This document shows positions 4,251 to 51,420 of a stretch of 64,000 nucleotides of DNA, one piece after another. The first letter of the stretch is position 1. Every line of letters starts with the position of its first letter. Where the stretch lies: IMG/VR virus record IMGVR_UViG_3300030040_000144, positions 37,244 to 101,243 of that record; one strand, given 5' to 3'. Under the pieces are notes generated by a model. That model saw only the letters and a program-made list of their open reading frames with translations, was not told the origin of the DNA and did not search any database. The position numbers and the translations under genes were made by a program. Source of the stretch: a virus.

Positions 4251-4265
4251 CCTTTTGGCGCACTC

Positions 4266-4285: not shown

Positions 4286-4325
4286 GCACATCACGCAAAA
4301 ACACGCATTTTTCAGTGTTTGCAAT

Positions 4326-4469: not shown

Positions 4470-4910
4470 ATGTCAACAAAACAATACGTCAACATAACAC
4501 AGCAGCAAATAGATAAAAGCCGCCAGTTAAAGAAAGAGAAAGTCAGGACTATTCACCAGCAGCAGGTTTTTCGTGATGCGCAGAACATATACTATGTTCT
4601 GGCGCAAGTGCGTAAAACATGCCCGGTAAAATACCGTGCAGTTATAGAACCTCTATATACGGAATGCGCAGCTCTGCTGGTAAACTTGTCTATAGCTTAT
4701 GCCGACCCCGTAGCGCGAATACCGCAGCTTACCGTAGCCGCCGCGCACACCGACGCCATAAAGACCGTTATTGGCATTATGCGTTCGTTAGGCTGCATAA
4801 GTAATGACGACTTCAAGAAAATCAAGACACTCGTCGCTTCTTGCGCCTCGCAGGTTTTAGCCTGGCGAGCATCGTCAGTGGTCAGAGTAACACAAGGTAA
4901 TGACCAATAA
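4470..4910 (+). CDS. avd: Accessory variability determinant (Avd)-like small basic protein
   Basis: 146-aa basic, helical-looking ORF located between the target gene and the TR/RT, the canonical avd position. No other match is recognisable from sequence alone. Confidence 0.55.
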   Translation: MSTKQYVNITQQQIDKSRQLKKEKVRTIHQQQVFRDAQNIYYVLAQVRKTCPVKYRAVIEPLYTECAALLVNLSIAYADPVARIPQLTVAAAHTDAIKTVIGIMRSLGCISNDDFKKIKTLVASCASQVLAWRASSVVRVTQGNDQ

Positions 4911-4922
4911 ATCAGATAGGTT

Positions 4923-26183: not shown

Positions 26184-27053
26184 ATGGAAGAAAAACTTAA
26201 AGAAGTGCTCGCCTTCGTGAATCACAAAGGCGGAGTAGGTAAGACAACAACAGTGCAGAGCCTTGCAGCCGGGCTAAGAACTTTCGGCAAAGGTCAGTTC
26301 GGTAAAGATAAAGACGGCAACGACCGCATCCCCCGCGTACTTATAATAGACCTCGATCCGCAAGCGTGTGTTTCGTTTCTCTCCGGTTGGAGTGAAACAA
26401 AGAACGTGGGCAAACCCACCATGTACGATGCGCTGGTGCAGCAAAGTCAGATGCCGGTGTATAAGGTAAACGAAGGTATATACCTGGCTCCGGCTTCGAG
26501 CCGACTGATAGGTATAGAGCCGTTCCTCAATCAGATGGCAGTCCCCAGAAAGGCGTTGTGTAAGCTGCTGGCTAAACCATTAATGGAAATGGAAGGTACG
26601 GAGCTGCACGATGAAGGCACTTTTAATGTGAACGAGGCGTTCGACTACGTGCTGATAGACTGTCCTCCTGCCATGTCGCTTCTTACATACAACGCACTTA
26701 CAGCGGCTACCAGTGTGGTACTGCCAGTGCAACTTGAAATGCTCGCTACAAAAGGTATAGCCGAGATTATCAATGCCGTAAAAGAAACTCGCGAAGACCT
26801 GAATCCCGACCTCGACATCAGAGGCTTGCTTATGGTCATGAGCAACGATCAAACCAAGGCTACCAAGCAGTTCAAAGAATATCTGGGAGACAAATTTGGT
26901 GATTATATGTTCGACTCTTATACTCGCCGTGACACCAAGATGGTAGAAGCCCAGGCTATGAACGAAGATATATTTTCTTACGCCCCACAGAGCAGGGTAG
27001 GCGAGGACTATGAAAATTTTACTAAAGAAATCATGGCTAGTATGCCACAATGA
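26184..27053 (+). CDS. parA: ParA/Soj-family partition ATPase
   Basis: Deviant Walker A VNHKGGVGKTTT near the N-terminus. 289 aa. Confidence 0.85.
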   Translation: MEEKLKEVLAFVNHKGGVGKTTTVQSLAAGLRTFGKGQFGKDKDGNDRIPRVLIIDLDPQACVSFLSGWSETKNVGKPTMYDALVQQSQMPVYKVNEGIYLAPASSRLIGIEPFLNQMAVPRKALCKLLAKPLMEMEGTELHDEGTFNVNEAFDYVLIDCPPAMSLLTYNALTAATSVVLPVQLEMLATKGIAEIINAVKETREDLNPDLDIRGLLMVMSNDQTKATKQFKEYLGDKFGDYMFDSYTRRDTKMVEAQAMNEDIFSYAPQSRVGEDYENFTKEIMASMPQ

Positions 27054-31299: not shown

Positions 31300-31707
31300 C
31301 TACCCTTGGTTCTCAAGGTATTTCTTGATGGTTTCTTGACTAACATTCCCTATGGATGAAACGAAATAACCGTCTGTCCAAAAAGTGTGTTCTTTGTAGA
31401 AATTGTGCCTGAGAAAATCACCATACTTTTTCCAAATGGCAGTAGTGGACATCTGCTTTAATCGCTTGACAATCTGTAGTGGTGACAGTTTAGGTACACT
31501 TCTGACCATCATGTGCAAGTGGTCTTTGTCCGTTTCCATAACTTCAATATCAAAGTCGGACATTTCTGATATGTTCCGCATGATATTCTTCATGTCGTGT
31601 TCGATTGCTCCGACAAGCAACTGCTTTCTGTATTTACATACGAAAATGACATGATACTTGATGAGGAATTTAGAGTGGTTCTTTGAAATGTATTCTTTCT
31701 GAATCAT
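31300..31707 (-). CDS. tnpA: IS200-like Y1 (HUH) transposase TnpA
   Basis: 135 aa. HUH motif HLHMMV and the catalytic Tyr region GYFVSS. Confidence 0.85.
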   Translation of the reverse strand: MIQKEYISKNHSKFLIKYHVIFVCKYRKQLLVGAIEHDMKNIMRNISEMSDFDIEVMETDKDHLHMMVRSVPKLSPLQIVKRLKQMSTTAIWKKYGDFLRHNFYKEHTFWTDGYFVSSIGNVSQETIKKYLENQG

Positions 31708-31742
31708 AACGTTTTCTGATTTTAAATGATTAACTTTGCATT

Positions 31743-32984
31743 ATGTTACGAACATACAAATATAGAATATATCCGACAGATGAGCAGAAGGTCTTGTTCG
31801 CAAAGACTTTCGGCTGTTGCCGCTTTGTCTATAATTGGGCTTTGAACATGAAAATCACAGCATACAAGGAGCGCAAGGAAACTCTTGGCAACGTGTATCT
31901 GACCAACTTGATGAAGAAGGAACTGAAGAGGGAATACGAATGGCTCACGGAGGTTAATTCACAGTCGTTGCAGAGCGCATTGCGCAATCTTGATACGGCT
32001 TACACAAACTTTTTCCGCAACACGAAAGGCGTTGGTTTCCCCCGTTACAAGTCGCGCAAGGACAGGCAGAGTTTTCTATGTCCCCAACATAGCCGTGTCG
32101 ATTTTTCCAAACACACAATAACCATACCAAAAGCAAAAGACATACCCGCAGTTTTGCACCGCAAGTTCAATGGTACAGTGAAGACTGTTACTATAAGCAT
32201 GACACCTTCGGGCAGATACTTTGCTTCTGTTCTTGTGGATACGGATATACAGGAAATCCCAAAGTCGGCAACGAACTCCAGTACAACCATTGGCATTGAC
32301 CTTGGCGTCAAGACTTTGGCAGTATGCTCCGACGGACGGACCTTTGACAATCCCAAGAACTTGCGCAAAGGTCAGAACCGCCTTGCGCTGTTGCAAAAGC
32401 GTCTGAGCCGTAGGCAGAAAGGCTCTTCAAACAGGAACAAGGCTCGCATAAAGGTCGCCCGTTTGCAAGAACGCATATCCAACCAACGTAAGGACAACCT
32501 TCACAAAATTACCCATACACTCACGCACGACAGCCAAGTGCGTACCATCTGCATGGAGGATTTGAATGTGAAAGGCATGACACGCAATCACCATTTGGCT
32601 CAGTCAGTGGCCGACGCTTCCTTTGGCATGTTCCTTACGATGTTGGAATACAAGTGCAAGTGGTATGGTGTGAATTTGGTAAAGATAGACCGTTTTGCCC
32701 CAAGCTCGAAGACTTGTGGCAAATGCGGCTATGTGTACAAAGGATTGAAGTTGAGCGAGCGCAGTTGGGAGTGTTCCGTTTGTGGAACACGCCACGACCG
32801 CGACTATAACGCAGCTTGCAATATCAAAGAGTTTGGCTTGAAAGCCCTACCCACGGAACGTGGGAAAGTAAAGCCTGTGGACTGCCCTCTTGTGGATGGC
32901 CGACCTCGTGTCCTAAAAAGCAATGGCAGGAAGAAGCAGGAAAAGCGAGGAGGTGCAGTATCTCCGAAGCCGCTAAGTCTTTAG
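31743..32984 (+). CDS. tnpB: TnpB (IS605 OrfB; RNA-guided RuvC-like nuclease)
   Basis: 413 aa. C-terminal CGKCGYVY...CSVCG zinc finger and a RuvC-like DNACNI segment. Its 3' end abuts the right-end hairpin, where an omega-RNA would be encoded. Confidence 0.85.
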   Translation: MLRTYKYRIYPTDEQKVLFAKTFGCCRFVYNWALNMKITAYKERKETLGNVYLTNLMKKELKREYEWLTEVNSQSLQSALRNLDTAYTNFFRNTKGVGFPRYKSRKDRQSFLCPQHSRVDFSKHTITIPKAKDIPAVLHRKFNGTVKTVTISMTPSGRYFASVLVDTDIQEIPKSATNSSTTIGIDLGVKTLAVCSDGRTFDNPKNLRKGQNRLALLQKRLSRRQKGSSNRNKARIKVARLQERISNQRKDNLHKITHTLTHDSQVRTICMEDLNVKGMTRNHHLAQSVADASFGMFLTMLEYKCKWYGVNLVKIDRFAPSSKTCGKCGYVYKGLKLSERSWECSVCGTRHDRDYNAACNIKEFGLKALPTERGKVKPVDCPLVDGRPRVLKSNGRKKQEKRGGAVSPKPLSL

Positions 32985-33832: not shown

Positions 33833-34330
33833 ATGACAAAAGAAAATATTGAAAAAATATCGGTTACGTTCGCTTTTTTTGGTATTGAAGAGATTTCGGC
33901 GGAAGAGAAGAAGCGTTTAATTGATTTTTTATCAGATAAAGGCTTTTCTTCTACTACTTTTTATCTGCGATTCTTTCAGAAAGGCTTTGCTCAGTGGGAG
34001 ATTATAGGAGTAAACGAATGTAAAAGACAGTTTTTAGCTATACCAGAAATAGCTCAGCTATTGTTGGAATACGTAGATTCTGATGCAGAAAAAGAAAACC
34101 GGGGCTATCTCTACACGTTAGCCTTGAATAATGAGGCAGGTTCTTTCTATAATAGTCTTAAACGAGTAAACAACGGCCTCTGTATGAAGTTCATTGACTT
34201 TATGCAGCAGAGAGGCATGAGCACCGGCACGGTGATAAAGAGATTCTCGTCGGACAACTGGAAGCCTTGGGAGGTGGACGGAATAACCAATTTGCTTTGT
34301 CAGTACAATGAAAAACAATCAGCATCATGA
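33833..34330 (+). CDS. Hypothetical protein (first early gene)
   Basis: 165-aa ORF. Confidence 0.35.
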   Translation: MTKENIEKISVTFAFFGIEEISAEEKKRLIDFLSDKGFSSTTFYLRFFQKGFAQWEIIGVNECKRQFLAIPEIAQLLLEYVDSDAEKENRGYLYTLALNNEAGSFYNSLKRVNNGLCMKFIDFMQQRGMSTGTVIKRFSSDNWKPWEVDGITNLLCQYNEKQSAS

Positions 34331-34992
34331 TAGATATTACTTTCGACCTTGAAACTTGCGCACGTTGTCCCAACGCTGCGGTCATGAGCATTGCAGCTCA
34401 AGTGTGGAACAGACACGCCAACGGCTCGCCGTTTACGGAATGGCATCCCGATGCCGAACCAAGATACAAGACTTTCTATTCACATATAGACTTGCGAGGC
34501 ATGTTTCTTGACGGTTTTTCGTTCGACAGTGCTACGGCGCAGTGGTGGAAGCAGCAAAGCCCCGAAGCTAAGGCGGAAGTGCTGGCAAATGATAGCGACG
34601 ACAGCCCATGTGTGCCTATAAATACCGCTATTGAAAACTTTTTCGACTGGATAAAAGACATCAGTCAAGAAACCGCCGATGAGGTTTTTTTATGGTCGCA
34701 AGGTACCGACTTCGACGTGGCTATATTACGCAATATCTGCTACCGATACCGCCTTGAGACTCCGGTGAAGTACACAAACTACAGAGACCACCGCACCTTT
34801 TTCATGGAAGGCGCTAAGACTATATGCGATGTGGCAGGTTCGGACTTCGACCCAAAACATGCTTATACGCTTGTAGACGAGTACGACGGAGAAGGAGTGC
34901 AGCATTCGCCTCTGTTCGACTGCCGTCGCAGCATATACTCTACGTGGCAGATGATGACTCATCTTAGATGCCTCGGTAAAAGTGGAGACTGA
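34327..34992 (+). CDS. DnaQ-like DEDD 3'-5' exonuclease
   Basis: Exo I IDITFDLETC, Exo II SQGTDFDVAIL, Exo III HSPLFDCRRS (DEDDh-like). Confidence 0.6.
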   Translation: MIDITFDLETCARCPNAAVMSIAAQVWNRHANGSPFTEWHPDAEPRYKTFYSHIDLRGMFLDGFSFDSATAQWWKQQSPEAKAEVLANDSDDSPCVPINTAIENFFDWIKDISQETADEVFLWSQGTDFDVAILRNICYRYRLETPVKYTNYRDHRTFFMEGAKTICDVAGSDFDPKHAYTLVDEYDGEGVQHSPLFDCRRSIYSTWQMMTHLRCLGKSGD

Positions 34993-35411
34993 TGTCATAT
35001 AAAAGTCATTTATATCGCCCCTATGTGCCTAACCGTAGCAATAAGAAAAAGTCCGGCAGACCTACGCCTCATGCTTACCTGCATCGCATAGCCTATACGG
35101 AAGTCATGCGAGGCATAAATGACGAGATTCCCGCCTTGATGTTTTACGCACCGTTCGAGTTGTTGAAAGATGCCTGCGAGCATCTGTTTAAGTTGATGAA
35201 CGGCAGGGTGGGGAATCTCATCATAAAAAACAGCCATTCATGCCGTGTAAAAAATGGCAAATGCTATTGGCGGGTAGAAGTACACATAGTAAACCTGGAC
35301 GAAGCATTGATGTCTCTGTCTGACTTTACGATGCTGCTTATTGCCCACATGAAGAATATCTGCAATTGCACAATCAAGCACTATCGGCTTGAGACGTTTC
35401 TTAACTTGTAA
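34992..35411 (+). CDS. Hypothetical protein
   Basis: 139-aa ORF. Confidence 0.3.
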   Translation: MSYKSHLYRPYVPNRSNKKKSGRPTPHAYLHRIAYTEVMRGINDEIPALMFYAPFELLKDACEHLFKLMNGRVGNLIIKNSHSCRVKNGKCYWRVEVHIVNLDEALMSLSDFTMLLIAHMKNICNCTIKHYRLETFLNL

Positions 35412-35444: not shown

Positions 35445-38400
35445 ATGCTCTTTCACCCTATAATCAATCAGTTAGCCAATATAGACCTTACCTATTTGGT
35501 AAAGCCTGCTGATGAGCAGCACATTGAAGGACAGACGGCTTGTTTCTGTCCGTTTTGCTCAAAGAGTGCCGAAATATACGGTAGGGCTAAGAGTATGCAG
35601 ACTCCGCATTTCATTATATACAACAATGAACGTGGCGGTTTATATAATGGAGTAGGAGTAGACGATGACCGTTTGGCTATACATGGTGCGGTACACTGGA
35701 AGTGCACCGTAACCGGAAAACAGGGGTATGGGGCTATAGAACTATATGCCGCCATCCATGATATTCCCCCGTTCGGGGCTAACCTACTGCGTATATGCCG
35801 TGCGCTTACGGTAATGAAATATGGCGATACCGACGAGGTACATGCCGCTTTTCCTGAAGTGTTCGCACCGATGGACTACCGTACATGCGCAAATCAGACC
35901 ATTGGCACGTTTCTGTTTCAGCCCAAGACCGACTTCTCGCCGCAAGAACTTGCGGCACTTGGTTGCGAGGTTACACTTCAGAAAGGTTTGCCGGTGTTCG
36001 GCTTCGGCAGCGATTTCAGTACAAAGATGCTGAACGACGATTTCCGTATATTCTCACTCCTGAATGTGACACTGCCGGATGTTCTGCGCGACGGGCAGCA
36101 TGTAAGCGAGGTAATTCACGGCACACCGTGGAATCCGCTTTTTGTTTGTTTCGCTTCTGACGAGACCGGACCGCAAGGTTCTTACGGATGTATTTTCCGC
36201 CCCGCGATAACTGCCGACCCCATTGTTTTTTCTACCGACGAAGAGCATAGCGTGCGCAAGGTGAGCAAGTGGCTCATGGGAGACAATGTATTTGTCTACG
36301 CCATGAATCACCGCGGAACCGGCAATACCGCCGTACATGCTGCTATACAGCGTTTCTGTCCCGACGAGGAATATACCATCACCAAGGAAGAGTGGGTGGA
36401 AAAAGAAGACAAGGACGGAAACCCCAAAGGCACTTTCAAGATGATAGAAACCGAGATACCGGCAGCTGAAATCAAGGCACGGAACATCGTTTTCTGCCGC
36501 ACCCCTGAGGATGCTCTTAGCGTGTACTATGCCATGCGCAGCCTGCGCCTTGACAAGAGTGATGTCGACGAGCACTTTGCGCATCACTGCTGGTATCACG
36601 TGGCTTTCGCCCTGGGTAGACGCAATTTTTGGTATATAGAGCGCGGGGAATGGCGACAGGAAAAACTCGACTTTAGCGGAGTGCAGTTTCAGAAGATGAA
36701 ACGCTTTGCGGAACGTGTAATCATGCTTTACCCAAATGATATAGCCAGCCAGCGTGATTGCGGCTCTATTGTAACCAAGTTTACGGAGCTGCATTATGCC
36801 ATGCTTCCTGAAGCTTTTCATTGCGCCTACTGTAAGCGTTGGAAATGGCTTTACGGCGGCACACCAAGGTCGGTAAGAGACTATATGTTATCGTACCGCA
36901 TGACTGTTGATGATAACTTCCGTTTCGATCACGACATACGCATACCGCTTTACTCGCGTCTGCGCGGAGCGAAAGATGCCGATCCGTTCGAGATAGAATA
37001 CCCTCGCGACCCCCGAAGCGGTAAGCCTAAAGCGCCCACATGCAAGGTGTCGCCTACTAAGGTATGGCTCTTTATGACCGCACACGGTTATTACCGCATG
37101 ATAGACCCCGAGAGTACCGACCTTGTAGGACAGTTCATCCACCTCGACCGTTGTTTTGTAGAGTATATAGATGCAAAGAGTATCATGCAGGCGGTAAAAA
37201 CTCTGCTCATGCAGTACATAGAGCAGAGCTGGCGACACTCTGACAATGAGCGCCGCCTGATGTCGGACTGCGCGAACCTTATAGACAAGACATTCACGGA
37301 AAAATCGGCTGGCGGCTTGCAGGGCATGGTAATAAACTTTGCCGATGCCTTTAATGCGAAGACGGAATATTTTTACTTCCGCAACGTAGCACTAAAGATA
37401 ACGCCCGACAGCATCCGCGCCGTGTCTTACGATGATATAAACTTCTTCATCCCGTCTCTCGCCAAGAAACCGTACGATTTTACCATGCGTCAGTTCAAAA
37501 CGCCGTTCGCCATTTTTGAGCGACCGGAGTACCGTGAGCGTCTTGATGCGATAAACAAGAAAGAGGCGATGAGAAACGAAGACGGATCTCCGGCTTATTC
37601 TTACGACGAGATTAAGCAACTGCGCGGCGAGCTTATGGAGTGGGCCCAGACTTACCGTTGGGATGTGGATTGGTTTGGCCAGAGCGAACAAGACCTTTGG
37701 CCGATACTGCGTATAGTGCGTGGCTTCTCTAATGTGTTGTGGGAACGCGAGAAAGAGGCGCAGCGAAACAAAGAACCTCTTACTGCCGAAGAGAAAGCCA
37801 TAATGAATGCGCACTTTGCCAATATGCTTTCATGTATAGGCCGCTTGTGCTTTCGCTCATGGGAAGGAATGCAGAATATTGCTCCCTATCTGCTTGAAGA
37901 CAACATAGCCGATGAAAAACAAGCAGCGGGAGGTAGCGGAAAATCGGTGTTGGTAAATACCGTGGTAGGTGCGGCGGTGAATGTACTATCAGTAGACATG
38001 AAAGATTTCATGATAGTAACCGATGCAAAATTTTCATTGACAGACCTTTTGCTTTATCCTGGCAAATACCGCGTGGTACATTGGGAAGATAAACAGAAGA
38101 GCTTTCCTATGAACTACTTCTACAATAAGGTCACTAAAGGGACCAAGGTTGAAAAAAAGTTTGGTGACCCGATAAATCTGAAGATGAACGAATCACCTAT
38201 TCACGCGATAACGAGTAATAGCCCGTTGAGCGATGACGACCCGTCTACGTTAGGCCGTTTTCCGTTGGTAAGTTTCTCCGACCGCTTTGCGCGAGAGAAT
38301 CAGCAGAAAAGACAACCTGCGCGTTCGCCGGCAGAACTGATGAAGCATTTCGATCCAAACCCTGAAAAGCTTACCGATACCGATCGCAATCAGGCTATTT

Positions 38401-39119
38401 ACCTGTGCGCTCTTGCGGTGCAGTTCTTGATGCGGTATAAAACATTCGCCATTGCGCCGCAAGGCAATGTTCGCCGTCGCCAGATGGTACAGAAGCTTAC
38501 GGAAAGCATTGTCCGCTACTTCGAATGGTTCTTTTCACGCAATGCCGTGTACGGAGTCCCTGTTTGTACCGATGATATGTTCAACGAGTTCATGCGCGAT
38601 TGGGCAGACGCTTCGGAAGGCAAGAGCAAGGAGTATAGCCGTGCCACTTTCAAGAAGAAGATTTACGACTATTGCGAAAACATGGGCATAGCGTGCAATC
38701 CTAAACATCTGTTTGAGAACGAGAGCGACAAGCAGCGCCGATGCTTCAAGCTTCAGGCGTGGGTAACGCAGGAGTACTTTACGGGCAGGGAATGGGAGAA
38801 TGACAATACCATCGAGCCTAAGTATATACGCTACCTACAAACCTCTAAGCACGTATTCTTCTTCTACCGTCTCGGCAAGGATGAGATACCTAAAGACTAC
38901 CGCGAACTGAAACGTATAGCAAAAGTGTATGCCGAGCGTCCCGACCCACTACCACATCTTGACGACAACGGTATGCCGATATATCTAACCGACGAAGAGA
39001 AAGAGCGATGGGAAAACAACCGCACGCGTAAGCAAGGCCGCCGCATAGTAGCGGCACCGGGCAACGCGCAGCAGCCCAACCCGCTACCTGAACTGAAGGA
39101 TGAAGATATGCCGTTTTAA
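35445..39119 (+). CDS. Primase-helicase (zinc-binding primase-like N-terminus, P-loop NTPase, P4/D5-like) with an SSB-Ct-like acidic tail
   Basis: N-terminal Cys/His cluster CFCPFCSK...HWKC. A Walker A-like AAGGSGKSVL at about aa 820. C-terminus ...LKDEDMPF. Confidence 0.55.
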   Translation: MLFHPIINQLANIDLTYLVKPADEQHIEGQTACFCPFCSKSAEIYGRAKSMQTPHFIIYNNERGGLYNGVGVDDDRLAIHGAVHWKCTVTGKQGYGAIELYAAIHDIPPFGANLLRICRALTVMKYGDTDEVHAAFPEVFAPMDYRTCANQTIGTFLFQPKTDFSPQELAALGCEVTLQKGLPVFGFGSDFSTKMLNDDFRIFSLLNVTLPDVLRDGQHVSEVIHGTPWNPLFVCFASDETGPQGSYGCIFRPAITADPIVFSTDEEHSVRKVSKWLMGDNVFVYAMNHRGTGNTAVHAAIQRFCPDEEYTITKEEWVEKEDKDGNPKGTFKMIETEIPAAEIKARNIVFCRTPEDALSVYYAMRSLRLDKSDVDEHFAHHCWYHVAFALGRRNFWYIERGEWRQEKLDFSGVQFQKMKRFAERVIMLYPNDIASQRDCGSIVTKFTELHYAMLPEAFHCAYCKRWKWLYGGTPRSVRDYMLSYRMTVDDNFRFDHDIRIPLYSRLRGAKDADPFEIEYPRDPRSGKPKAPTCKVSPTKVWLFMTAHGYYRMIDPESTDLVGQFIHLDRCFVEYIDAKSIMQAVKTLLMQYIEQSWRHSDNERRLMSDCANLIDKTFTEKSAGGLQGMVINFADAFNAKTEYFYFRNVALKITPDSIRAVSYDDINFFIPSLAKKPYDFTMRQFKTPFAIFERPEYRERLDAINKKEAMRNEDGSPAYSYDEIKQLRGELMEWAQTYRWDVDWFGQSEQDLWPILRIVRGFSNVLWEREKEAQRNKEPLTAEEKAIMNAHFANMLSCIGRLCFRSWEGMQNIAPYLLEDNIADEKQAAGGSGKSVLVNTVVGAAVNVLSVDMKDFMIVTDAKFSLTDLLLYPGKYRVVHWEDKQKSFPMNYFYNKVTKGTKVEKKFGDPINLKMNESPIHAITSNSPLSDDDPSTLGRFPLVSFSDRFARENQQKRQPARSPAELMKHFDPNPEKLTDTDRNQAIYLCALAVQFLMRYKTFAIAPQGNVRRRQMVQKLTESIVRYFEWFFSRNAVYGVPVCTDDMFNEFMRDWADASEGKSKEYSRATFKKKIYDYCENMGIACNPKHLFENESDKQRRCFKLQAWVTQEYFTGREWENDNTIEPKYIRYLQTSKHVFFFYRLGKDEIPKDYRELKRIAKVYAERPDPLPHLDDNGMPIYLTDEEKERWENNRTRKQGRRIVAAPGNAQQPNPLPELKDEDMPF

Positions 39120-39177
39120 ACAGATTGAGCTTATATACTGAATTACAATATTTTACAAACATTTAAAATATAAAGCT

Positions 39178-39408
39178 ATGAGTTTTACCCCCCCCACTTG
39201 CCAAAACTGCATATCATACAGTCATGTGCAGTGCAGTTGCCGCGAACAAGGCTCCGACTTTTTCGGCGGCAATATCAGTCCTTTCCATCCGGCTTGCTAC
39301 AAGTATATCGGCATCGCCTCAGTTTACAGCCGCAAGAACCGCCCTAAGAAATGGTTTAAGGCAAAAACGATGGAGGATATGTACGATGATAAAGCGAGAG
39401 TTTATTAA
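39178..39408 (+). CDS. Hypothetical Cys-rich small protein
   Basis: 76 aa, MSFTPPTCQNC...CSC. Its 5' region contains a C9 homopolymer. Confidence 0.3.
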   Translation: MSFTPPTCQNCISYSHVQCSCREQGSDFFGGNISPFHPACYKYIGIASVYSRKNRPKKWFKAKTMEDMYDDKARVY

Positions 39409-39427
39409 AATATAAAGACGCATTAAT

Positions 39428-39655
39428 ATGGAAGAAGGAAAGGATTCAATTTGGCACGATGCAAGCGAAATGCCGGAAAGGGAAGAAGAGATATTGGTCG
39501 AGATGCAAAATAGCGTACTTGATAATGAGAATGAGATTAAAATGAAAAGCGAGATAAACCTCTTTTTAGCTGACAAAATACAGTGGAGTGAATTTATTTC
39601 CGGTCTCAATGTAAAAAGATGGTGTTATTATACAGATTTTTTAAATGCGTTATGA
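39428..39655 (+). CDS. Hypothetical small acidic protein
   Basis: 75 aa. N-terminal ...SIWHDASE motif shared with the next gene. Confidence 0.3.
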   Translation: MEEGKDSIWHDASEMPEREEEILVEMQNSVLDNENEIKMKSEINLFLADKIQWSEFISGLNVKRWCYYTDFLNAL

Positions 39656-40059
39656 AAGGAAAAGCAAAAAAATCAATCTGGCCCGATGCAAGCGAAGAAC
39701 GGTTCCATCTTGAAGATATTACAATTGATAAAGAGATGAAGAAAAAAGTATTAAGGTTAACCCTCAAAAAAAAGTGGTACAATCTTATTATGCTTGGTGC
39801 CAAACGAGAAGAATACCGCGAAATCAAAGAGTATTGGTTAAAGCGTTTGTTCGATGTTCAAAATCCTATGATAGCAAAGTTCATCTTTGGCAACGTTGGA
39901 TTGACCCCTAAGAATTTCACGCATGTTCAATTTCGTCTCGGCTATAGAAAGAATGCTCCAACTATGGAATTTCAGATAACTGACATCGGTATAAATAGAG
40001 GAGATAGTAGTATGGGAGCCCCCGTAGATCAAAATGTGATTATAATCAAGTTTAAATAA
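39652..40059 (+). CDS. Hypothetical protein, possibly ASCH/PUA-like
   Basis: Start MKGKAKKSIWPDASE. LTLKKKWYNLIMLGAKREEYREIKEYW weakly resembles ASCH-type beta-barrel domains. Confidence 0.3.
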   Translation: MKGKAKKSIWPDASEERFHLEDITIDKEMKKKVLRLTLKKKWYNLIMLGAKREEYREIKEYWLKRLFDVQNPMIAKFIFGNVGLTPKNFTHVQFRLGYRKNAPTMEFQITDIGINRGDSSMGAPVDQNVIIIKFK

Positions 40060-40067
40060 AGTAAATC

Positions 40068-40322
40068 ATGGATAGAACAAAGTACAAAGTGATACATGTG
40101 AGACGTAAACTCCCCAAGCAGGATTGTACGGTGATGCTCTGTAAAGACCGCGCTACCGATAAATGGTGTTTTGTAAATATGACTTCCAAGCATTTTTGCG
40201 CTTGTCGTTTTGATACAGTTAAAGACGCGATGCAAGATCTTGAAAAACGTGATGAAGTAATATCGTATACCGTAGAAGCGTTCGGCTATTATGATGTACA
40301 CATGAGCGGAAAGCTGATTTGA
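40068..40322 (+). CDS. Hypothetical protein
   Basis: 84-aa ORF. Confidence 0.3.
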   Translation: MDRTKYKVIHVRRKLPKQDCTVMLCKDRATDKWCFVNMTSKHFCACRFDTVKDAMQDLEKRDEVISYTVEAFGYYDVHMSGKLI

Positions 40323-40347
40323 AAATCAATATCAAACAACAGACTAT

Positions 40348-40626
40348 ATGATAACATTTAGAATAAAAACTTTTAAAGATTATAAGAATCAGTTTATTGA
40401 GTGGGTTAAAGAACCACGAAGGAGAGTTTGTAAAAGTTACGTGTCTTATTCTGCGGAAATTGCAAAAAGACTGATAGATAGAGATCTCGTCGCTAAATGT
40501 AAAGAACTGGGGCTTAACGAAGACGCAACGTCACAGATAGTAGATTTAGCGGAGTTTTGCGTCAGTAAAGCAGAACGAGAAACTAAAGAACTCATTGATT
40601 CTTGTCAACCTAAAAACCTTTTATAG
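40348..40626 (+). CDS. Hypothetical protein
   Basis: 92-aa ORF. Confidence 0.3.
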   Translation: MITFRIKTFKDYKNQFIEWVKEPRRRVCKSYVSYSAEIAKRLIDRDLVAKCKELGLNEDATSQIVDLAEFCVSKAERETKELIDSCQPKNLL

Positions 40627-40628
40627 TT

Positions 40629-40961
40629 ATGGCAAAGATAATCTATTTCGGCACAAACGGATGTAGCGGTCACACAGCGATTGGTATTGATGTTGATTTG
40701 ACGCACGACGAATACCTGAAATGGTGCGAGTGCGACAACGAAAAATGGATATATACACTCTATCAAGAACCGGAAAAGCACACGCGTTACATAACTCATT
40801 ACGGTTTAGTATACACGGTCTATTCCATTCCTTTATCTGTGGACGATCATCGTTTGATGTCGCATACCAATTTGTTTTGGGAGGGGCGACATACAGAACA
40901 AGAGATGATAGATTTTATCAGGAACAATGATTTTTTAAAAAGGCAATTTCAATTGGATTAA
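40629..40961 (+). CDS. Hypothetical protein
   Basis: 110-aa ORF. Confidence 0.3.
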   Translation: MAKIIYFGTNGCSGHTAIGIDVDLTHDEYLKWCECDNEKWIYTLYQEPEKHTRYITHYGLVYTVYSIPLSVDDHRLMSHTNLFWEGRHTEQEMIDFIRNNDFLKRQFQLD

Positions 40962-40972
40962 AATTAATAGTC

Positions 40973-41542
40973 ATGGAAATAAAGAAAGAAAATGCAATAG
41001 CGGCTTATAACGCTGCTGACGAAAACACGAGACAAGTGCTTCTGTCACTCGTGCCGGAACTGAAAGAAGCAGTCGAACCAAAGTCTATTACAGAACGTGT
41101 GAAAACTTTTGAGGACGCTTGCGAGATTCTTGGAGAGGAACATCCGTTTGTATGCGCATACTATTGCATTGAGGATGTTGATGAATGCTATAACGATATT
41201 GCAGCGTTCTTGAAGCTCCGCGTCATCTGTGCAGCTCTAAATGAGGGTTGGGAACCTCAGTTTACAAAAAGCGAGGAACGTTGGTTCCCTTGGTTTGCGC
41301 TATGGACTGAAGAAGAACTGTCGGATAAGAGTGACAAGTGGAAAGCCGACCGACACCTCATATCGCCAGACGACTATTCATGCGACTATGCAGGTCTCGC
41401 CTGTGCGGGCTCGAATAACGCCCCATCATTTGCGTTTGCGAACCTCGGCTCTCACCTTTGCCTTAAGAGTGAAGCCCTCGCCACGTATTGCGGCAAACAA
41501 TTTATCGAGTTATGGGCAGACTTTAACCTAATTAGAAAGTAA
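40973..41542 (+). CDS. Hypothetical protein
   Basis: 189-aa ORF. Confidence 0.35.
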   Translation: MEIKKENAIAAYNAADENTRQVLLSLVPELKEAVEPKSITERVKTFEDACEILGEEHPFVCAYYCIEDVDECYNDIAAFLKLRVICAALNEGWEPQFTKSEERWFPWFALWTEEELSDKSDKWKADRHLISPDDYSCDYAGLACAGSNNAPSFAFANLGSHLCLKSEALATYCGKQFIELWADFNLIRK

Positions 41543-41547
41543 AGACT

Positions 41548-41958
41548 ATGTATTTAAAAGACTTAAGAATCGGGAATGTTGTATGGCACTCTAGTGAATA
41601 TATAGGATATAGATATTCAGAGGTAATCGGTTTTTTGGATGCTGAATATGTAATAGTTTTAGAACATTTCAGAGAAGGACGTGATGATATGGTATTCAAA
41701 AGAGTGTTTGCGATTGAAGCGGTGCAAGGTTTTCCGTTGACTTCAAGAATTTTAAAAAACAACGGTTTCAAGTCAAATATATGCAATAGTATAGAAAAAG
41801 ATGGTAAAAGAATAGGTTTATTCCGCAGTCCCGAAAACAAAAAAGTGTATCTGCGTTTGCAATTAACTTATGATTCGAGAAAAGTATTTAAGTACGTCCA
41901 CGAATTTCAGAACTTTCTTAATCTGATAGGCTTGGATGATGAATTAAAAATTGAATAA
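41548..41958 (+). CDS. Hypothetical protein
   Basis: 136-aa ORF. Confidence 0.3.
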   Translation: MYLKDLRIGNVVWHSSEYIGYRYSEVIGFLDAEYVIVLEHFREGRDDMVFKRVFAIEAVQGFPLTSRILKNNGFKSNICNSIEKDGKRIGLFRSPENKKVYLRLQLTYDSRKVFKYVHEFQNFLNLIGLDDELKIE

Positions 41959-42121
41959 TGAATAAAAAGCGTTTATCACTAATATCAGGTATCACGATTG
42001 CCTGTATAGCCTTAGCTGCAAGCAGCCGGATATTTAACCACGTAAGTCCGTGGCTTGGAATAATGACATTTGCGATAGCATTGTTTTACATAATTCATAA
42101 ACTAACTAAATTTTAAACAAC

Positions 42122-42928
42122 ATGAAAAAAATGATTCAATTGATTGCGGTATGTGTAGCCGCAGTGGTATTGTCATCGTGCGAAAGAGTGGCTCCAAACT
42201 ATGCTGGCGTACTGATGGAAAACTATGGCAAACAAGGTAAGGAAGACTTCAAGGTTGTATCCGGCAGGGTAGCCACATGGGAGTTTGGTACAGAACTGTT
42301 CCAGGTACCGCTGTTTGATCAGCGCGGAGAGTTTACTTCACCTGTTGAACTGAAAGCCGCCGACAATACTGCCTTTACCGCGTGCCCGTCGTACTCTTAT
42401 AAGGTACTTCGCAATCGTGCGGTTGATGTAGTTTTTGACAATAAGCACATCGACAAAGCGAATACCAGCAACGGTAAGGACGGTTTCATGCAGAGTCTTG
42501 AAGATAACATTCTTGAACCCCGTATCTACGACCTTATCAAGGAAGAAAGCCGCAAGTATAAAACCGATACGTTGATGGCAGAGGGCGGTTCGCTCCTTTT
42601 CGAGAAGAAACTTGAACGCATAGTAGAGCAGGAATTTGAGAAAAGAGGCCTTCAATTGATAGTGTTTTCGGCGCAGTTGGAATTTTCTAAAGCCGTGCGC
42701 GAAAAGATAGACAGTCGTAATGAAGTCAACACTAACATCTCCGTTCTTGAGCAGCAGATTTCAGAGCAGAAAAAGCGCAACGAACTGGAGCAACTGAAAA
42801 CCGAGCAGGCTTTAATCACCTCAAAGGGTCTCACTAAAGAAATACTGTACAAGCAGTTTATCGACAAATGGGATGGTCGCACCCCCATCTATGGAGCTAT
42901 CCCCGATTTGATTAAAATTCAGAAGTAA
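42122..42928 (+). CDS. Lipoprotein, possibly SPFH/band-7-like with a C-terminal coiled coil
   Basis: MKKMIQLIAVCVAAVVLSSCE lipobox. C-terminal heptad-like EQQISEQKKRNELEQLKTEQ. Confidence 0.35.
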   Translation: MKKMIQLIAVCVAAVVLSSCERVAPNYAGVLMENYGKQGKEDFKVVSGRVATWEFGTELFQVPLFDQRGEFTSPVELKAADNTAFTACPSYSYKVLRNRAVDVVFDNKHIDKANTSNGKDGFMQSLEDNILEPRIYDLIKEESRKYKTDTLMAEGGSLLFEKKLERIVEQEFEKRGLQLIVFSAQLEFSKAVREKIDSRNEVNTNISVLEQQISEQKKRNELEQLKTEQALITSKGLTKEILYKQFIDKWDGRTPIYGAIPDLIKIQK

Positions 42929-42955
42929 TACATTAACTAAAACCTATATATCATT

Positions 42956-43567
42956 ATGGCAAGTTACAATGGCAACATCGACCTGCTTTCTCTGAATGGA
43001 GCGCAGGTATTTACTGGCATCGACCAGAAGAATCCCGGAAAGGCATACGTATGTATTCCGGTAGATTTAAATGACATCAGAGTGGAAAGCGTAAACGGCG
43101 GAGCGCAAGGTACACCGCGTACCGTGGCACGACTGAGAGTAAACATCTGGCCGCTCAATGAGCAGTATAAAGCCAGAGTGCGTCAGTCGTCTTTAGAAAG
43201 AGGCGACAGCAACGTCAGTGTACCGACTCACGAGATGCAAATCTCTTATTCTACTGACTTCGTTAAGCACGCTGCACGCAGTCTGCCGAAGCTGGTAGAA
43301 GAAGTCAGAAAAGCCAACGCCGAGCATCATCCGGAGTTTGCGGGTCAAGACCCCACAGATGAGACACAGTCGCTCTTCAAGGCGATACGCAGCCGCATGA
43401 ACAAACGCATAGCTATGCTTTATCAGCCGCAGACGGCGCAGCAGCCATCGCCTTATCCGAATCAGGCAGCCGGATATGCGCAAGCTGGAGGGGCTTCGGT
43501 ATATACACCCACAGCAGCAACCGGAGGAGCGTTCGAGTTTGAACCAGACGAAGACCTGCCGTTCTAA
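42956..43567 (+). CDS. SSB-like protein with a canonical SSB-Ct-type acidic tip
   Basis: 203 aa. A Gly/Gln/Pro/Ala-rich flexible linker (YPNQAAGYAQAGGAS) and C-terminus EFEPDEDLPF (compare E. coli SSB ...DDDIPF). Directly upstream of the clamp gene. Confidence 0.5.
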   Translation: MASYNGNIDLLSLNGAQVFTGIDQKNPGKAYVCIPVDLNDIRVESVNGGAQGTPRTVARLRVNIWPLNEQYKARVRQSSLERGDSNVSVPTHEMQISYSTDFVKHAARSLPKLVEEVRKANAEHHPEFAGQDPTDETQSLFKAIRSRMNKRIAMLYQPQTAQQPSPYPNQAAGYAQAGGASVYTPTAATGGAFEFEPDEDLPF

Positions 43568-43616: not shown

Positions 43617-44801
43617 ATGAAACTACAAGCCAAATCATCAAAAGAACTCAATAAGGCACTGCGCAAATCGGCAAAATGTATGGCAAATAAAAACGCCCTG
43701 CCTATCCTTGACAACGTACTGCTGTCAATGAACGCCGACGGCCGTTTCTGTTTCACTACCTCTACCGGCGATGCGCAGCTTTCCATCCCTGCACCGCTTA
43801 CCATATTCGACGGCAAGTTTACCGCCCCCGTGGCGTTACCGCTCAGCATCATCACTTCGTTTCTGGCGGCTCTGCCTGAGTGTACCGTGACACTTGTGTT
43901 CGATGAGAAATCCAGCACTCTAACATTTGAATATTGCACCGAGGTAGGCGACAAGGTAAAAGAAGGAGAGGTATCTGTGGCTTACTACGACGGTAAGGAG
44001 TACCCTCTGCTGAAGCCCGCTACCGAGAACTGCACATACATTTCTCTGCCGATGGCGGTATTGAACAGCGTGCTCGCCCAAGCTAAAGACTTCATCAAGA
44101 TAGACGACCTCCGCCCTGTAATGAACTGCCTGTGCATAGATATAGCCGACGACCTTTCTGAACTGAACTTCGTAGCCAGCGACGGCAATACTCTCTACCG
44201 CCGCACATACAGCAACGATCCTGCCAAAGGCGGCGGTGAGTTTTTCCGCAGTGGTGAAGCGTGCCGTATTCTGGTAAGCCTGCTCTACTTCCGCACGCTG
44301 TCGGCATTCGACGGGTGCGACACCGTAGACATACAGACCGATGGCCGCACCATCTATTTCTCCGCTCCCGATGTAGAGCTTACATGCCGCGCCATAGAAG
44401 GTCGCTACCCCAACTACCGTGCCGTGATACCTACGGGTAATCCATACTATATATGCGTGGGTAAAGCGGAAGCGTTGGCAGTATGCTCGCGCGTAAGTCT
44501 TTTCTCTGACAGAAGCAACAATAACATCGTGCTGAAGAAAGAAGGAATGTTCCTTAACGTGTCGGCGCGAGACCTTGACTATTCTACCGCCGCCGAAGAT
44601 CAGGTGCTGATAGCCGACAACGAATGTCAGGACGGCTTTAGCATAGCGTTCAACGTACAGAAGTTTATTACTGCCATGAGTGCCATTTCAGCCGACGGTG
44701 TGCGTATACAGATGTCAGAACCTAACCGCGCGGTGGTGATTACCGCCAACAGTCCGGTCCCCGACACACTTACGCTATGTATGCCTATGCTGATAGACTG
44801 A
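43617..44801 (+). CDS. dnaN: DNA polymerase III beta sliding clamp-like protein
   Basis: 394 aa. N-terminal ...ALPILDNVLL... resembles the conserved DnaN LPILsNVLL segment. The length is typical of a three-domain clamp. Confidence 0.65.
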   Translation: MKLQAKSSKELNKALRKSAKCMANKNALPILDNVLLSMNADGRFCFTTSTGDAQLSIPAPLTIFDGKFTAPVALPLSIITSFLAALPECTVTLVFDEKSSTLTFEYCTEVGDKVKEGEVSVAYYDGKEYPLLKPATENCTYISLPMAVLNSVLAQAKDFIKIDDLRPVMNCLCIDIADDLSELNFVASDGNTLYRRTYSNDPAKGGGEFFRSGEACRILVSLLYFRTLSAFDGCDTVDIQTDGRTIYFSAPDVELTCRAIEGRYPNYRAVIPTGNPYYICVGKAEALAVCSRVSLFSDRSNNNIVLKKEGMFLNVSARDLDYSTAAEDQVLIADNECQDGFSIAFNVQKFITAMSAISADGVRIQMSEPNRAVVITANSPVPDTLTLCMPMLID

Positions 44802-44905: not shown

Positions 44906-45547
44906 ATGACTCTTGACGATACACTACTCTTTATGCCTCCGTGCTGCGTAGACCGCCGTCTGCCGCAAGCCATAATGCAAAGCCCCGGTCGCATGTTGAC
45001 TTTCTATACGCATAGCGACGTGCTGATGGAGAACTTCTTTCGTGCGGTGGCTTTCATGGTAGAAGACCCCGCTGTGATGGTGCTGTCCATGTCGTTGCTC
45101 GCGTCAGAGAATGCCGTGTTCCTTCAGCAGTGTTTTGAGCGCAACTGGATAACCGACCTTGTGCTTTCTACCTCCAGCGAATCAGAGAAACTGATAAACC
45201 TCCATCTGTCGGAGTATAAAGACCGCATACTATATGTAAACACCGACGACGCTACGGATCAGTCATCGCACATGGTACTTTACACCAAGAAGAAAGCTCT
45301 GGTGCTTACCGGACCGATGTACAACCGTTTCCGGGCATCGGGACTGACCGCCTACACTCTGACACTTTACCCTAACATGGGGACTTTCTCAGACAATCTG
45401 AATTGGGGTCATCCCGTGCGCAACGTGCTTTTCCCCGATGTGCTACGGCACAGACAGAAGGTACTGAAAGACAAACTGACGGTATCTTCGCCTGCACTGA
45501 AATGTTTTCTTCACGCAGAGTTCCCACCTTATAAAGACGATGAATAA
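44906..45547 (+). CDS. Hypothetical protein
   Basis: 213-aa ORF. Confidence 0.3.
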   Translation: MTLDDTLLFMPPCCVDRRLPQAIMQSPGRMLTFYTHSDVLMENFFRAVAFMVEDPAVMVLSMSLLASENAVFLQQCFERNWITDLVLSTSSESEKLINLHLSEYKDRILYVNTDDATDQSSHMVLYTKKKALVLTGPMYNRFRASGLTAYTLTLYPNMGTFSDNLNWGHPVRNVLFPDVLRHRQKVLKDKLTVSSPALKCFLHAEFPPYKDDE

Positions 45548-45894: not shown

Positions 45895-46458
45895 ATGTGG
45901 AACTTTTTTAGAGAAAGAAAGAAACGCAAGCAGTTGAGAAATCTTACACGCGCCTTGGGAGTAATGAAGTCGTTCGCCATAGCAGGCTTGATTTATTGGA
46001 GAGAAAAAGACCGTGTACTGCTTATAGAAGAAAGTCTGGCAATGGTCAACATGGCGGAGGGCGGAGAAATCTTTCGTAACTTCCTTAATGCGGCAGCACT
46101 GTACGTCAACTACAAGCTGATGCAAGATACCTATAGTAAGGTGATGCAGCAGAAAGAAGCCGAAGCCGTGCGTCAGGCATTGAAAGAATACGGCACTACC
46201 GGCGATGCTGATATAAACCGAATACGTCAGAAGGTGAGAGACGATCTTGAAATGATAGATGCTTCCAAGATGAAGCTCGTAACGGAGTTCGACATCCTGA
46301 TAATTCGTCAGCACACCAAGAACCGCGACCATGCTACCGAAGAAGGAGGCGAACTTTTAGCCGTAGGCCATTATGACGGAAAAACCGTAGAGATGGCATC
46401 GTTCGACGATATAAAGCATAACCTCGTAAACAACAGAGAGAATAGCGAGAATAACTAA
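45895..46458 (+). CDS. Hypothetical protein
   Basis: 187-aa ORF. Confidence 0.3.
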   Translation: MWNFFRERKKRKQLRNLTRALGVMKSFAIAGLIYWREKDRVLLIEESLAMVNMAEGGEIFRNFLNAAALYVNYKLMQDTYSKVMQQKEAEAVRQALKEYGTTGDADINRIRQKVRDDLEMIDASKMKLVTEFDILIIRQHTKNRDHATEEGGELLAVGHYDGKTVEMASFDDIKHNLVNNRENSENN

Positions 46459-49625: not shown

Positions 49626-51420
49626 CGTTGTGATAAGAGGGCACTGAAAAAGTAATCACTATTCAGAGTTCTCTGAGGATTATATGAAAAATATAGAGTT
49701 CGTCAACTCCTTATCCGAGGACTTGACGAACTCTGATTTTTATCGATAGGTAGGTTATATGACTCTGTATTGACTCTAATCAGCCATGTGCAGCCTTATT
49801 CTGGGATAATGATGAGCAGTCCTCAGCTCAGTTTGAGGATTCTTTTTATATTTGCAACAAAAATCACCATTGCCCCTTGCATACGCATACAGTCCAGACC
49901 ATACGAGTCTGCACGGTCGTATCCAAATACATTCTTCAATTCTGCGTTTTTGGCCTCGATTTTATATCGGATTTTAGCCTTTGTCTTGAACTCCTCTGTT
50001 TGTTCAAAGTCGGCTTGCTGCAGATGCTCTCCCGATTTAATCTGCACGGCATAAGACTTGCTTTTGGCCCCTTCTTTATAACATCCGTTCCGCCGTGAAC
50101 ATGTTCTGCATTTCTCTACATCAAAGTAGAAGACAAGTGACTGGTTCTGTTTCTCTCCCTTCTTTCCCTGTCGCGCTTTTCTTATCGCCATATGCCCGGC
50201 CGGACAAACATACATTCCGGCATCCTTGTTATAATCAAAACGGTCTTCTTCCTTACGCGTGCCATTGCTGATTGTCGGATTTAATCTGGCAACCAGCTCA
50301 AAACCATTTTCTTTGTCATTTGAAAGTATTATGTTGTCTTTGCCCGAGTACGCAGTGTCGCCGACTACTGTATCAACGACCATGCCGTTGGTGCGGCTCT
50401 GCTCTACAAGTTCCTGAAGCTGGGGGCCGTCCCCTTTCTCTCCGGAGGTGACTGTCGCAGCCGTTATGATGCGTTCATCACTCATTGCGATATGGGTCTT
50501 ATATCCGAAGAAAGAGGCATCCTTACTCTTGTGCCCAATCCTGGCATCCTCGTCCTTGGACGTTACATAATGGTCTTCAATATCTGAAAGTACCTCCTTA
50601 AGCATGTTAAGACGCTCCTTGATTTTAGGAACTTCTGCAAGACAGGGATTGGAACCTACGACATTCAGCAGATTTTTGGTGTAGTCAAGCTCATGTTCCA
50701 GATTATCATCCGTGTTCTTTTCAGGAAGAGTATTTTTGATAGTCTCGTCTGATTCATACAGACATTTGCGCAACTGTTTTGAGCGAAGCCGCAATATCTC
50801 AACCGGGGAATAAGGATTGCTTCGTGAGCCGGTGTGGGTGGCATCAACGATTATAGTACGTGATTTGATTATTCCTTTTTCAATTGCAATCTCAACGGTT
50901 TTGCCAATCAGAAGATTCAACAGGGCCTTGTCTTTTAGTCTAAGCTTACGGAACTTACACAGAGAACTGGGATTTATCAGGTCCGTGTTTTCTGGACTCA
51001 TCCCAAGAAAATACTTGAAAGACATATCATAACGGGACCTCTCTACAACATCAACATCGGATATGTCATAAATTGTCTTCAGAAGAAGATATTTGAACAT
51101 CATTACAGGGCTTTCAGCCATGCGGCCATTGTCATGGCAGTATTTATCCATAAGTTCTTTTTGGATGAAGGAGAAGTCCACAAGGTCATTAATCCTGCGC
51201 AGAACATTATCGCTAGGAATAATCAAATCGTATAAATCACTGTAATTGCTGAATTGTATTGTCTGTTGAGTCGGGAGCATTTCTTTGTGTGTTATATCTA
51301 TAAAGATACGCAAAAATCGGCATATATCCAAAATGTTTATTGGGTATATGCCGATTATATCAGACAATTATCCTATGAAAGGACTTTTTCAGTGCCCTCT
51401 TGTGATAACGTCCGTTTTTT
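49626..51420. mobile_element. IS1182/IS5-like insertion sequence
   Basis: Terminal inverted repeats of ~38 bp: aaaaaacgg[c/a]cgtt[g/a]t[g/c]a[t/c]aagagggcactgaaaaagt at 49626-49663, and its reverse complement at 51383-51420. They bracket a single DDE transposase gene. Confidence 0.7.
49823..51367 (-). CDS. DDE transposase (IS1182/IS5-like family)
   Basis: 514 aa. N-terminal ...DLVDFSFIQKELMDKYCHDNGRMAESPVMMFKYLLLKTIYDISD... is typical of IS1182-type transposases. Confidence 0.7.
   Translation of the reverse strand: MSDIIGIYPINILDICRFLRIFIDITHKEMLPTQQTIQFSNYSDLYDLIIPSDNVLRRINDLVDFSFIQKELMDKYCHDNGRMAESPVMMFKYLLLKTIYDISDVDVVERSRYDMSFKYFLGMSPENTDLINPSSLCKFRKLRLKDKALLNLLIGKTVEIAIEKGIIKSRTIIVDATHTGSRSNPYSPVEILRLRSKQLRKCLYESDETIKNTLPEKNTDDNLEHELDYTKNLLNVVGSNPCLAEVPKIKERLNMLKEVLSDIEDHYVTSKDEDARIGHKSKDASFFGYKTHIAMSDERIITAATVTSGEKGDGPQLQELVEQSRTNGMVVDTVVGDTAYSGKDNIILSNDKENGFELVARLNPTISNGTRKEEDRFDYNKDAGMYVCPAGHMAIRKARQGKKGEKQNQSLVFYFDVEKCRTCSRRNGCYKEGAKSKSYAVQIKSGEHLQQADFEQTEEFKTKAKIRYKIEAKNAELKNVFGYDRADSYGLDCMRMQGAMVIFVANIKRILKLS

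Follow-up and report, generated by a model that had tools for sequence, protein, structure and literature searches.

A 64,000-nucleotide stretch of a virus genome (IMG/VR record IMGVR_UViG_3300030040_000144, positions 37,244 to 101,243; called the window here and numbered from its first letter) carries two replication-module genes whose products end in closely similar short acidic tails. The first is a 1224-residue open reading frame (ORF) at 35445..39119 on the plus strand, which appears to encode a large replicative helicase. Its C-terminus is ...NPLPELKDEDMPF, that is ...APGNAQQPNPLPELKDEDMPF, and its final residues are ELKDEDMPF. The second is a 203-residue ORF at 42956..43567, also on the plus strand, which encodes a small protein with the C-terminus ...AFEFEPDEDLPF, that is ...GGAFEFEPDEDLPF, and the final residues EPDEDLPF. 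A preliminary description of the region had pointed to these tails and likened them to the tip of SSB, the Escherichia coli protein that binds single-stranded DNA; reading of the DNA confirms that both exist. The interval under study, 39090-43567, opens with the codon for the initial E of ELKDEDMPF and closes with the stop of the 203-residue gene; the helicase gene itself starts at 35445.

Two tips of the SSB type

The helicase tip ELKDEDMPF with its stop codon occupies 39090..39119 (plus strand), as defined by the ORF call, the DNA and the pattern of the family. The small-protein tip DEDLPF with its stop codon occupies 43547..43567 (plus strand), defined by the ORF call, the DNA and alignment A1, which holds 37 small-protein sequences reaching down to 23% identity, without a conserved stretch. 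In both genes the stop codon directly follows the phenylalanine codon, leaving a terminal Phe with a free carboxylate. Each tip is held on a linker. That of the helicase is variable, spans about 20 residues (...RRIVAAPGNAQQPNPLP; 39030..39089, plus strand) and was delimited by column entropy; it joins the final conserved block (ERW..RKQGRR) to the tip. That of the small protein comprises residues 161-197 (43436..43546, plus strand), is rich in P/Q/G/A/S/T and is disordered according to the AlphaFold2 (AF2) confidence score (pLDDT), its composition and A1.

PF closes five of the 767 stop-to-stop frames of at least 40 residues in the window, and just two of the five, those of the helicase and of the small protein, have an acidic run ahead of it. 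The tips are written in different codons, gat gaa gat atg ccg ttt in the helicase and gac gaa gac ctg ccg ttc in the small protein. The common tail is therefore not the product of a recent duplication of DNA, and the likeness is one of protein sequence. From typical residue frequencies, [DE][DE][DEN][LIM]PF at a C-terminus would arise at less than 1e-6 per protein, an order-of-magnitude estimate, and two such tips among about 82 genes are therefore far beyond chance.

The proposed likeness to the C-terminal tip of SSB (SSB-Ct) is borne out, with an acidic run and L/M-P-F to set beside DDDIPF, DDDLPF and DLPF. The SSB-Ct consensus, acidic residues followed by [I/L/V]-P-F, is satisfied by DEDLPF, and DEDMPF is a conservative variant with M at position -3. 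The E. coli SSB tip is DDDIPF (PMC5872125), and Gram-positive SsbA ends in DDDLPF. In Table 1 of PMC3991886 the SSBs of Flavobacterium psychrophilum and Psychroflexus torquis end in DLPF and those of Proteobacteria in DIPF or DVPF. The phage tips match the Bacteroidota form DLPF as seen in these two SSBs, the small-protein tip letter for letter.

Conservation and exclusivity of the tips

Related loci were found with a narrower alignment, A2, and exclusivity was counted over 83 of them from IMG/VR, with 10-kb flanks and ORFs of at least 80 residues. PF ends 148 of the 3158 ORFs, and all 148 belong to the helicase or the small-protein family. Both tails occur together in 71 related loci. A helicase ORF of 1000 residues or more is found in 66 of the IMG/VR loci, and none of these lacks the tip.

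The helicase has 217 homologues, the best 120 of which (at least 73% identity) all end in xPF. The preliminary description had tied its proposal to conservation of the tail in orthologous helicases, and the tail was found to persist down to 44% identity, in L095 (...PQPQPQPQPVPINEDEMPF, ending ...INEDEMPF) and L096 (...ESDDDMPF). It is also present in L011, where a helicase C-terminal fragment (...TTEELERWTIYTERKQGRF...NAPDDLPF) lies upstream of a 31%-identical small protein and aligns with the helicase C-terminus of the window (...TDEEKERWENNRTRKQGRR...KDEDMPF). Across 112 distinct helicase C-termini the tip follows the pattern P-x-[IVLM]-[KND]-[ED]-x-[DN]-[LM]-P-F, with the final P and F in all 112 and position -3 taken by L in 79 and M in 32. 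The linker columns of these C-termini show an entropy of 2-2.9 bits together with indels, against about 0 in the flanking block (ERW..RKQGRR) and in the tip.

The small-protein family gave 1130 matches at 90% clustering, and the best 120 all end in xPF. Representatives of clusters at 50% identity, searched exhaustively, gave 62 matches, 38 of them full-size, and 33 of the 38 end in PF. Three of the five full-size exceptions look frameshifted and two have acidic variants (...FDDLSY, ...DFDEGSYIQ). Counted over 38 representatives that end in PF, the end is LPF in 37 and MPF in one, with DLPF in 32. Within A1 the invariant residues are M1, P202 and F203 only, and L201 is at least 90% conserved; the linker is poorly aligned, with many indels. 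The tip is retained down to about 23-25% identity. As judged from these alignments, a conserved domain, a variable linker and an invariant P-F are the signature of a selected short linear motif.

A conserved C-terminal LPF could in principle mark a protein for proteolysis, as the ClpXP degron on SsbA and SsbB of Streptococcus mutans does. LPF suffices for ClpXP-dependent degradation of green fluorescent protein in some S. mutans strains, but the tag goes unrecognised in E. coli, in other streptococci and in vitro (PMC5143411). A degron of three residues also needs neither a conserved acidic run nor a long linker, and this explanation is very improbable.

The large helicase

The 1224-residue protein (35445..39119) was assigned as a replicative helicase related to the superfamily 3 (SF3), D5 and P4-alpha group, with a Cys/His-rich N-terminal region. 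Residues 829-930 match DUF5906, an SF3/D5-like NTPase core, with an E-value of 0.005 for the whole protein and 6.5e-4 for the segment; at 17.9-20.8 bits against a Pfam cut-off of 27.6, the match is sub-threshold. A match to phrog_28855 has an E-value of 2.6e-9. By BLASTP, residues 543-1051 align with the 'DNA primase/TOPRIM' protein of Polaribacter phage Leef_1 at 21% identity (pairwise E-value 2e-17), and the aligned part includes a GGSGKS Walker A motif. This 950-residue Leef_1 protein (MT732473.1, 5795..8647) is the sole annotated relative of the helicase among 50,697 phage records. The DUF5906 and phrog_28855 matches, together with the Leef_1 homology and its Walker A motif, make the helicase identity credible.

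The label 'primase-helicase' used earlier is credible for its second half. An SF3/D5-like helicase part is detectable through a sub-threshold DUF5906 match and the homology to the Leef_1 protein, and a primase is not detectable. No N-terminal segment matched any family at E<=5, and neither a Toprim nor an archaeo-eukaryotic primase (AEP) domain was detected, so the primase part is unproven. Visual inspection gave the only clues to a primase, a Cys/His cluster and strings that look like Toprim, and the name 'primase' comes from the annotation of the distant homologue. The helicase has no sequence relative in the PDB, and tblastn against plasmids gave no match.

The small protein

The product of 42956..43567 divides into two parts. 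AF2 with a 37-sequence alignment predicts residues 1-160 as ordered (pLDDT >90) and residues 161-203 as disordered (pLDDT 49-67). The globular domain (residues 1-160; 42956..43435, plus strand), delimited by AF2, is mildly basic, with a median isoelectric point of 8.6 across the family, and is a candidate single-stranded DNA (ssDNA)-binding or hub domain. Linker and tip together measure 43 residues here and 30-54 across the family, with a median net charge of about -5 and about 62% P/Q/G/A/S/T.

Searches with the globular domain found no sequence match in Pfam, PHROG or the PDB and no fold match in the PDB or BFVD. The BFVD fold search with the small protein returned marginal, uncharacterised matches alone (A0A6J7X8J1 and M1PXM7, E-value about 7e-3). 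Neither tblastn of the small protein against the 50,697 phage records nor megablast of the region gave a match. Identification as an OB-fold SSB (PF00436) or as a gp2.5-like, gp32-like or Rad52-like protein was rejected, since no such fold is recognisable by sequence or structure. The earlier label 'SSB-like' is thus apt for the linker and the tip and fails for the globular domain, which matches no Pfam, PHROG or PDB family or fold and has no recognisable OB fold. The protein is, on present predictions, SSB-like in layout only: a basic domain, a linker and an acidic tip. That it binds ssDNA is a conjecture to which the mildly basic domain and the position in the replication module lend indirect signs.

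About 12-20 residues before the tip, many members of A1 have a second acidic-aromatic patch (..DPF.. in the family, ..FEFE.. here). In E. coli SSB the tip DDDIPF is preceded by MDF. By analogy with that motif, the upstream patch of the small protein could make a secondary contact.

Gene module, neighbours and candidate partners

Both genes belong to a module that is common to about 70 loci, in the order Rep-like protein, p165, 3'-5' exonuclease, p139, helicase, small protein, DnaN clamp, p213 and p187, all of them on the plus strand in the window. The module starts with a putative replication initiator (27947..29524; weak sub-threshold Rep3_N/RepM match) with homologues in 60 related loci. The exonuclease (34327..34992) has a DnaQ fold of the Rv2179c-like type (PF16473, E-value 2.4e-23), occurs in 69 related loci and is a candidate partner of the tails. 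The proteins p165 (33833..34330) and p139 (34992..35411) are conserved in 68-69 related loci, and p213 (44906..45547) and p187 (45895..46458) in 71; none of the four matches a family.

Helicase and small-protein genes are separated in the window by 3836 nt, against 39-1794 nt in 71 related loci, and the junction therefore looks like a hot spot for cargo insertion. The inserted block (39120..42955, plus strand), delimited by GC content, PHROG matches and the gap comparison, holds about ten small accessory genes and lies outside the proposed mechanism. It includes a lipoprotein gene (42122..42928, phrog_200), and the GC content drops to 0.387 at 40-42 kb within it.

Metagenome-assembled genome bins that contain relatives were assigned to Prevotella (three), Paludibacteraceae, Bacteroidaceae and, in one case, 'Clostridium sp. 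CAG:302'. The host of these uncultured gut phages is most likely a member of the Bacteroidales, for example Prevotella; binning is weak evidence. Assignment of the phage to the 'Quimbyviridae', 'Flandersviridae' or 'Gratiaviridae' was considered and rejected, as it fits none of these groups, all of which have DnaB/DnaG-type modules (PMC8008677).

The small protein also occurs in a second lineage, formed by L053 and 14 further loci (L054, L055, L061, L072, L082 and others), where it lies at about 10001-10609, is 53-57% identical and has the tip ...NSDLPF. Its neighbours there are an S49 (capsid) protease, a LysR regulator, a DUF6712 protein and a beta-ketoacyl synthase. The context of the more distant small-protein relatives was read mostly from contigs of 1-5 kb.

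The gene thus stands alone, outside a replication module, in the second lineage; nothing else in the family is as conserved as the tip; and the globular domain resembles no DNA-binding fold. These points agree with a decoy, in which many host-like tips would titrate RecJ, RecQ, ExoI-type exonucleases and PriA or redirect them away from phage DNA, with the helicase tail giving local protection or recruitment. A decoy accounts less well for a gene that lies directly downstream of the helicase gene and beside the clamp gene across deep divergence, for the lack of any other SSB candidate in the window, and for a mildly basic domain with an acidic tail that mirrors SSB architecture. It is regarded as quite unlikely.

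The clamp gene (43617..44801, plus strand; Pfam, TIGR00663 and phrog_947 matches) encodes a beta sliding clamp of the DnaN type, another candidate partner. PF00712 and PF02768 match above their cut-offs, and the central PF02767 falls just under it (24.5 against 27). TIGR00663 matches with an E-value of 9e-34 and phrog_947 with 5e-43. Judged by these matches the protein is a phage DnaN with three clamp domains, and it is called divergent because the TIGR00663 score falls below the equivalog cut-off.

The clamp was one of the docking sites suggested in the preliminary description, and C-terminal peptides of both proteins might bind in its hydrophobic pocket, much as the tails of T4 gp43, gp33 and gp55 dock on gp45. 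In the window the small-protein gene is directly followed by that of the clamp. In distant relatives with 24-35% identity a clamp gene adjoins it on either side (L006, L008, L098 and L099) or lies one small gene downstream of it (L011). The clamp also retains the canonical ...MPM... C-terminal pocket strand. This synteny is equally explained, however, if all three are simply replication genes. The tips (P-D-E-D-L-P-F and L-K-D-E-D-M-P-F) are strongly acidic, without the Q-L spacing of QL[SD]LF or QLxLxL, and the tip is letter for letter SSB-Ct instead. A regex scan of all module proteins found no motif resembling a clamp-binding motif (CBM), and in the second lineage, where 10 kb of flank hold no clamp gene, the tip is still there. 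Docking on the phage's own clamp is considered unlikely.

Another partner within the phage could be the small protein itself, with the helicase tail lying in its nucleic-acid groove, or the exonuclease, p139, p165, p213 or p187, with both tails bound to it. The tails of SSB and gp2.5 fold back on their own DNA-binding sites. Conservation of the nine-gene module in about 70 loci also favours a partner of this kind, and module members without a known function could carry an SSB-Ct pocket. For the exonuclease there is the parallel of E. coli exonuclease I, a classic SSB-Ct client (PMC10143822). Yet a purely internal contact has no need of the exact host-type tip, and the second lineage has the tipped small protein without these neighbours within 10 kb. 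The chance of a phage-internal partner is put about as low as that of the clamp.

Proposed mechanism

The evidence leans towards reading both tails as docking motifs of the SSB-Ct type on flexible tethers, which would reach the pockets that read the host SSB tip. The two proteins probably have a common partner, most plausibly within the host replication machinery. A Pfam scan of the roughly 82 ORFs in the 64-kb window found no DNA polymerase and no canonical SSB (PF00436), and because module and window lack them, coupling to host machinery is likely.

The linker-held acidic L/M-P-F tips of the helicase and the small protein would enter the type of pocket normally taken by the host SSB tip. The tails would thereby tether the phage fork proteins to the host Pol III/DnaE machinery, the clamp loader, the primase, or restart or repair factors. 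The helicase tail would then be the functional counterpart of the link between the T7 gp4 tail and polymerase, or of the DnaB-tau link. The SSB tip is a centre around which bacterial replication, restart and repair proteins are organised. In Bacillus subtilis no fewer than 12 proteins of the fork and of repair, DnaE included, are recruited by the C-terminus of SSB (PMC3000357).

Host factors of the chi kind had been proposed among the docking sites. The chi and psi subunits are largely proteobacterial, and with a Bacteroidales host they are unlikely partners.

Several observations weigh against docking on host SSB-tip pockets. The polymerase negative covers the window, and a polymerase could be encoded in the remainder of the phage genome, roughly a third of it. 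Within 10 kb of its tipped small protein, the second lineage has neither a tailed helicase nor a clamp or exonuclease. No known SSB resembles the small protein's globular domain, and the DLPF comparison is with two published SSBs from other Bacteroidota. Some relatives have less acidic helicase tips (AKDLPF, KDTLPF, DNGLPF). Finally, the Leef_1 helicase homologue, at 21% identity, ends in ...EVDNLDFLGE, without a PF tip; its acidic end with an internal LDF might be another way of meeting the same need.

A wider model would have the phage build a hybrid replisome. Its SF3 helicase and its small protein, the latter a non-OB protein of undescribed fold that binds ssDNA or serves as a hub, would each copy the host DLPF tip. 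They would thereby plug into the network of host SSB partners (DnaE/Pol III, clamp loader, restart factors), in place of coupling of the DnaB-tau type. The 203-residue family, which comprises more than 1100 clusters at 90% identity, would in this model form a structural class of its own among phage SSBs, and a new one. The model is tentative and decidedly less probable than docking on SSB-tip pockets as such.

If docking on host pockets is correct, a copy of the SSB tip on a phage helicase would be a simple and previously undescribed host coupling for a polymerase-less phage or phage-plasmid. It would extend the T7 principle of matched helicase and SSB tails to an unrelated helicase superfamily and combine it with mimicry of a host motif. 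The 203-residue family is abundant in gut metagenomes (the 1130 matches above) and has a confident fold without a structural relative, which makes it a candidate new ssDNA-binding or hub protein. The tip sequences are ready peptide baits for the unstudied SSB interactome of Prevotella and Bacteroides.

Other features of the window

A diversity-generating retroelement occupies 201..6401, with its reverse transcriptase ORF at 4923..6401 (phrog_1423). Two 128-nt repeats, the variable repeat (VR) at 4106-4233 and the template repeat (TR) at 5054-5181, are 91% identical; at each of their 11 mismatches the 5054-5181 copy has an adenine. This is the classic template-repeat to variable-repeat pattern, and the target is the C-terminus of a 1349-residue ORF (201..4250).

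Mobile elements of the insertion sequence (IS) kind are also present. An IS200-type Y1 transposase with a TnpB-like ORF (phrog_506) lies at 31303..32984, inside the replication module, and an IS DDE transposase (DUF772 and DDE_Tnp_1) lies at 49823..51367, adjoining a putative large terminase at 51439..53433. An ORF resembling HNH or homing endonucleases (14990..16516, phrog_559) and a weak radical-SAM ORF (55883..56902) are unrelated to the tails.

The window also encodes a ParA-type ATPase (26184..27053), the weak Rep3_N/RepM initiator that opens the module and several helix-turn-helix (HTH) proteins of the Cro/CI type, and scans of the window turned up no integrase. Together these gene assignments suggest a possible episomal, phage-plasmid lifestyle.

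Comparison with known systems

The closest counterpart of the tips is the bacterial SSB-Ct. The shared features are the position at the extreme C-terminus, the acidic run with [IL]-P-F and the disordered P/Q/G-rich linker before it, and the small protein copies the full layout of ordered domain, linker and tip. The differences are that the small protein has no OB or known SSB fold, that the second carrier is a 1224-residue SF3-type helicase, and that the phage helicase tip often has M at -3 and fewer acidic residues.

With the T4 tails on gp45 and the beta-clamp motifs, the phage shares a C-terminal hydrophobic peptide common to several proteins and a clamp gene as a conserved neighbour. The tips here misfit the beta-clamp motif QL[SD]LF, however, and acidic residues dominate them.

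P4 alpha, poxvirus D5 and the DUF5906 proteins resemble the helicase in being large single polypeptides, in its case with a putative SF3 P-loop (GGSGKS) and a core that resembles DUF5906, and the homology to the flavobacterial phage protein spans about 500 residues. The matches, on the other hand, lie below curated thresholds, a primase domain was not detected and the Leef_1 homologue has no tip. To our knowledge, no SSB-type tip is known for the primase-helicases of this group. A literature search with a limited full-text library and set of terms found no helicase with an SSB-Ct mimic, which is not proof of absence.

The precedent in phage T7, invoked when the tails were first described, stands at the level that helicase-primase and SSB both end in acidic residues and Phe: gp2.5 ends in ...ADEDGDF and gp4 in ...WSNDTDF. 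Basic patches on the T7 (gp5) polymerase receive the gp4 tails, which are required for processivity, and the helicase tail and the SSB tail have a common docking site (PMC12593628). Here too a helicase and a protein in the SSB position of one phage have like acidic, Phe-ended tails, which would point to one docking site that links the parts of the fork. The T7 tips (...EDGDF, ...NDTDF), in contrast, do not follow the [IL]PF consensus, and the tips here do. T7 gp4 is an SF4, DnaB-like helicase and gp2.5 an OB-fold protein, whereas the phage has an SF3/D5-like helicase and a small protein of unmatched fold. No homology to either T7 protein was found, the helicase matching SF3-type DUF5906 only and the small protein giving no gp2.5 fold match. 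T7 also encodes its own polymerase, while none was found in the 64-kb window. The best reading is that the two tails are a variant of this known docking principle, in which an SF3 helicase mimics the host-type SSB tip, as does a protein family whose fold matches nothing solved.

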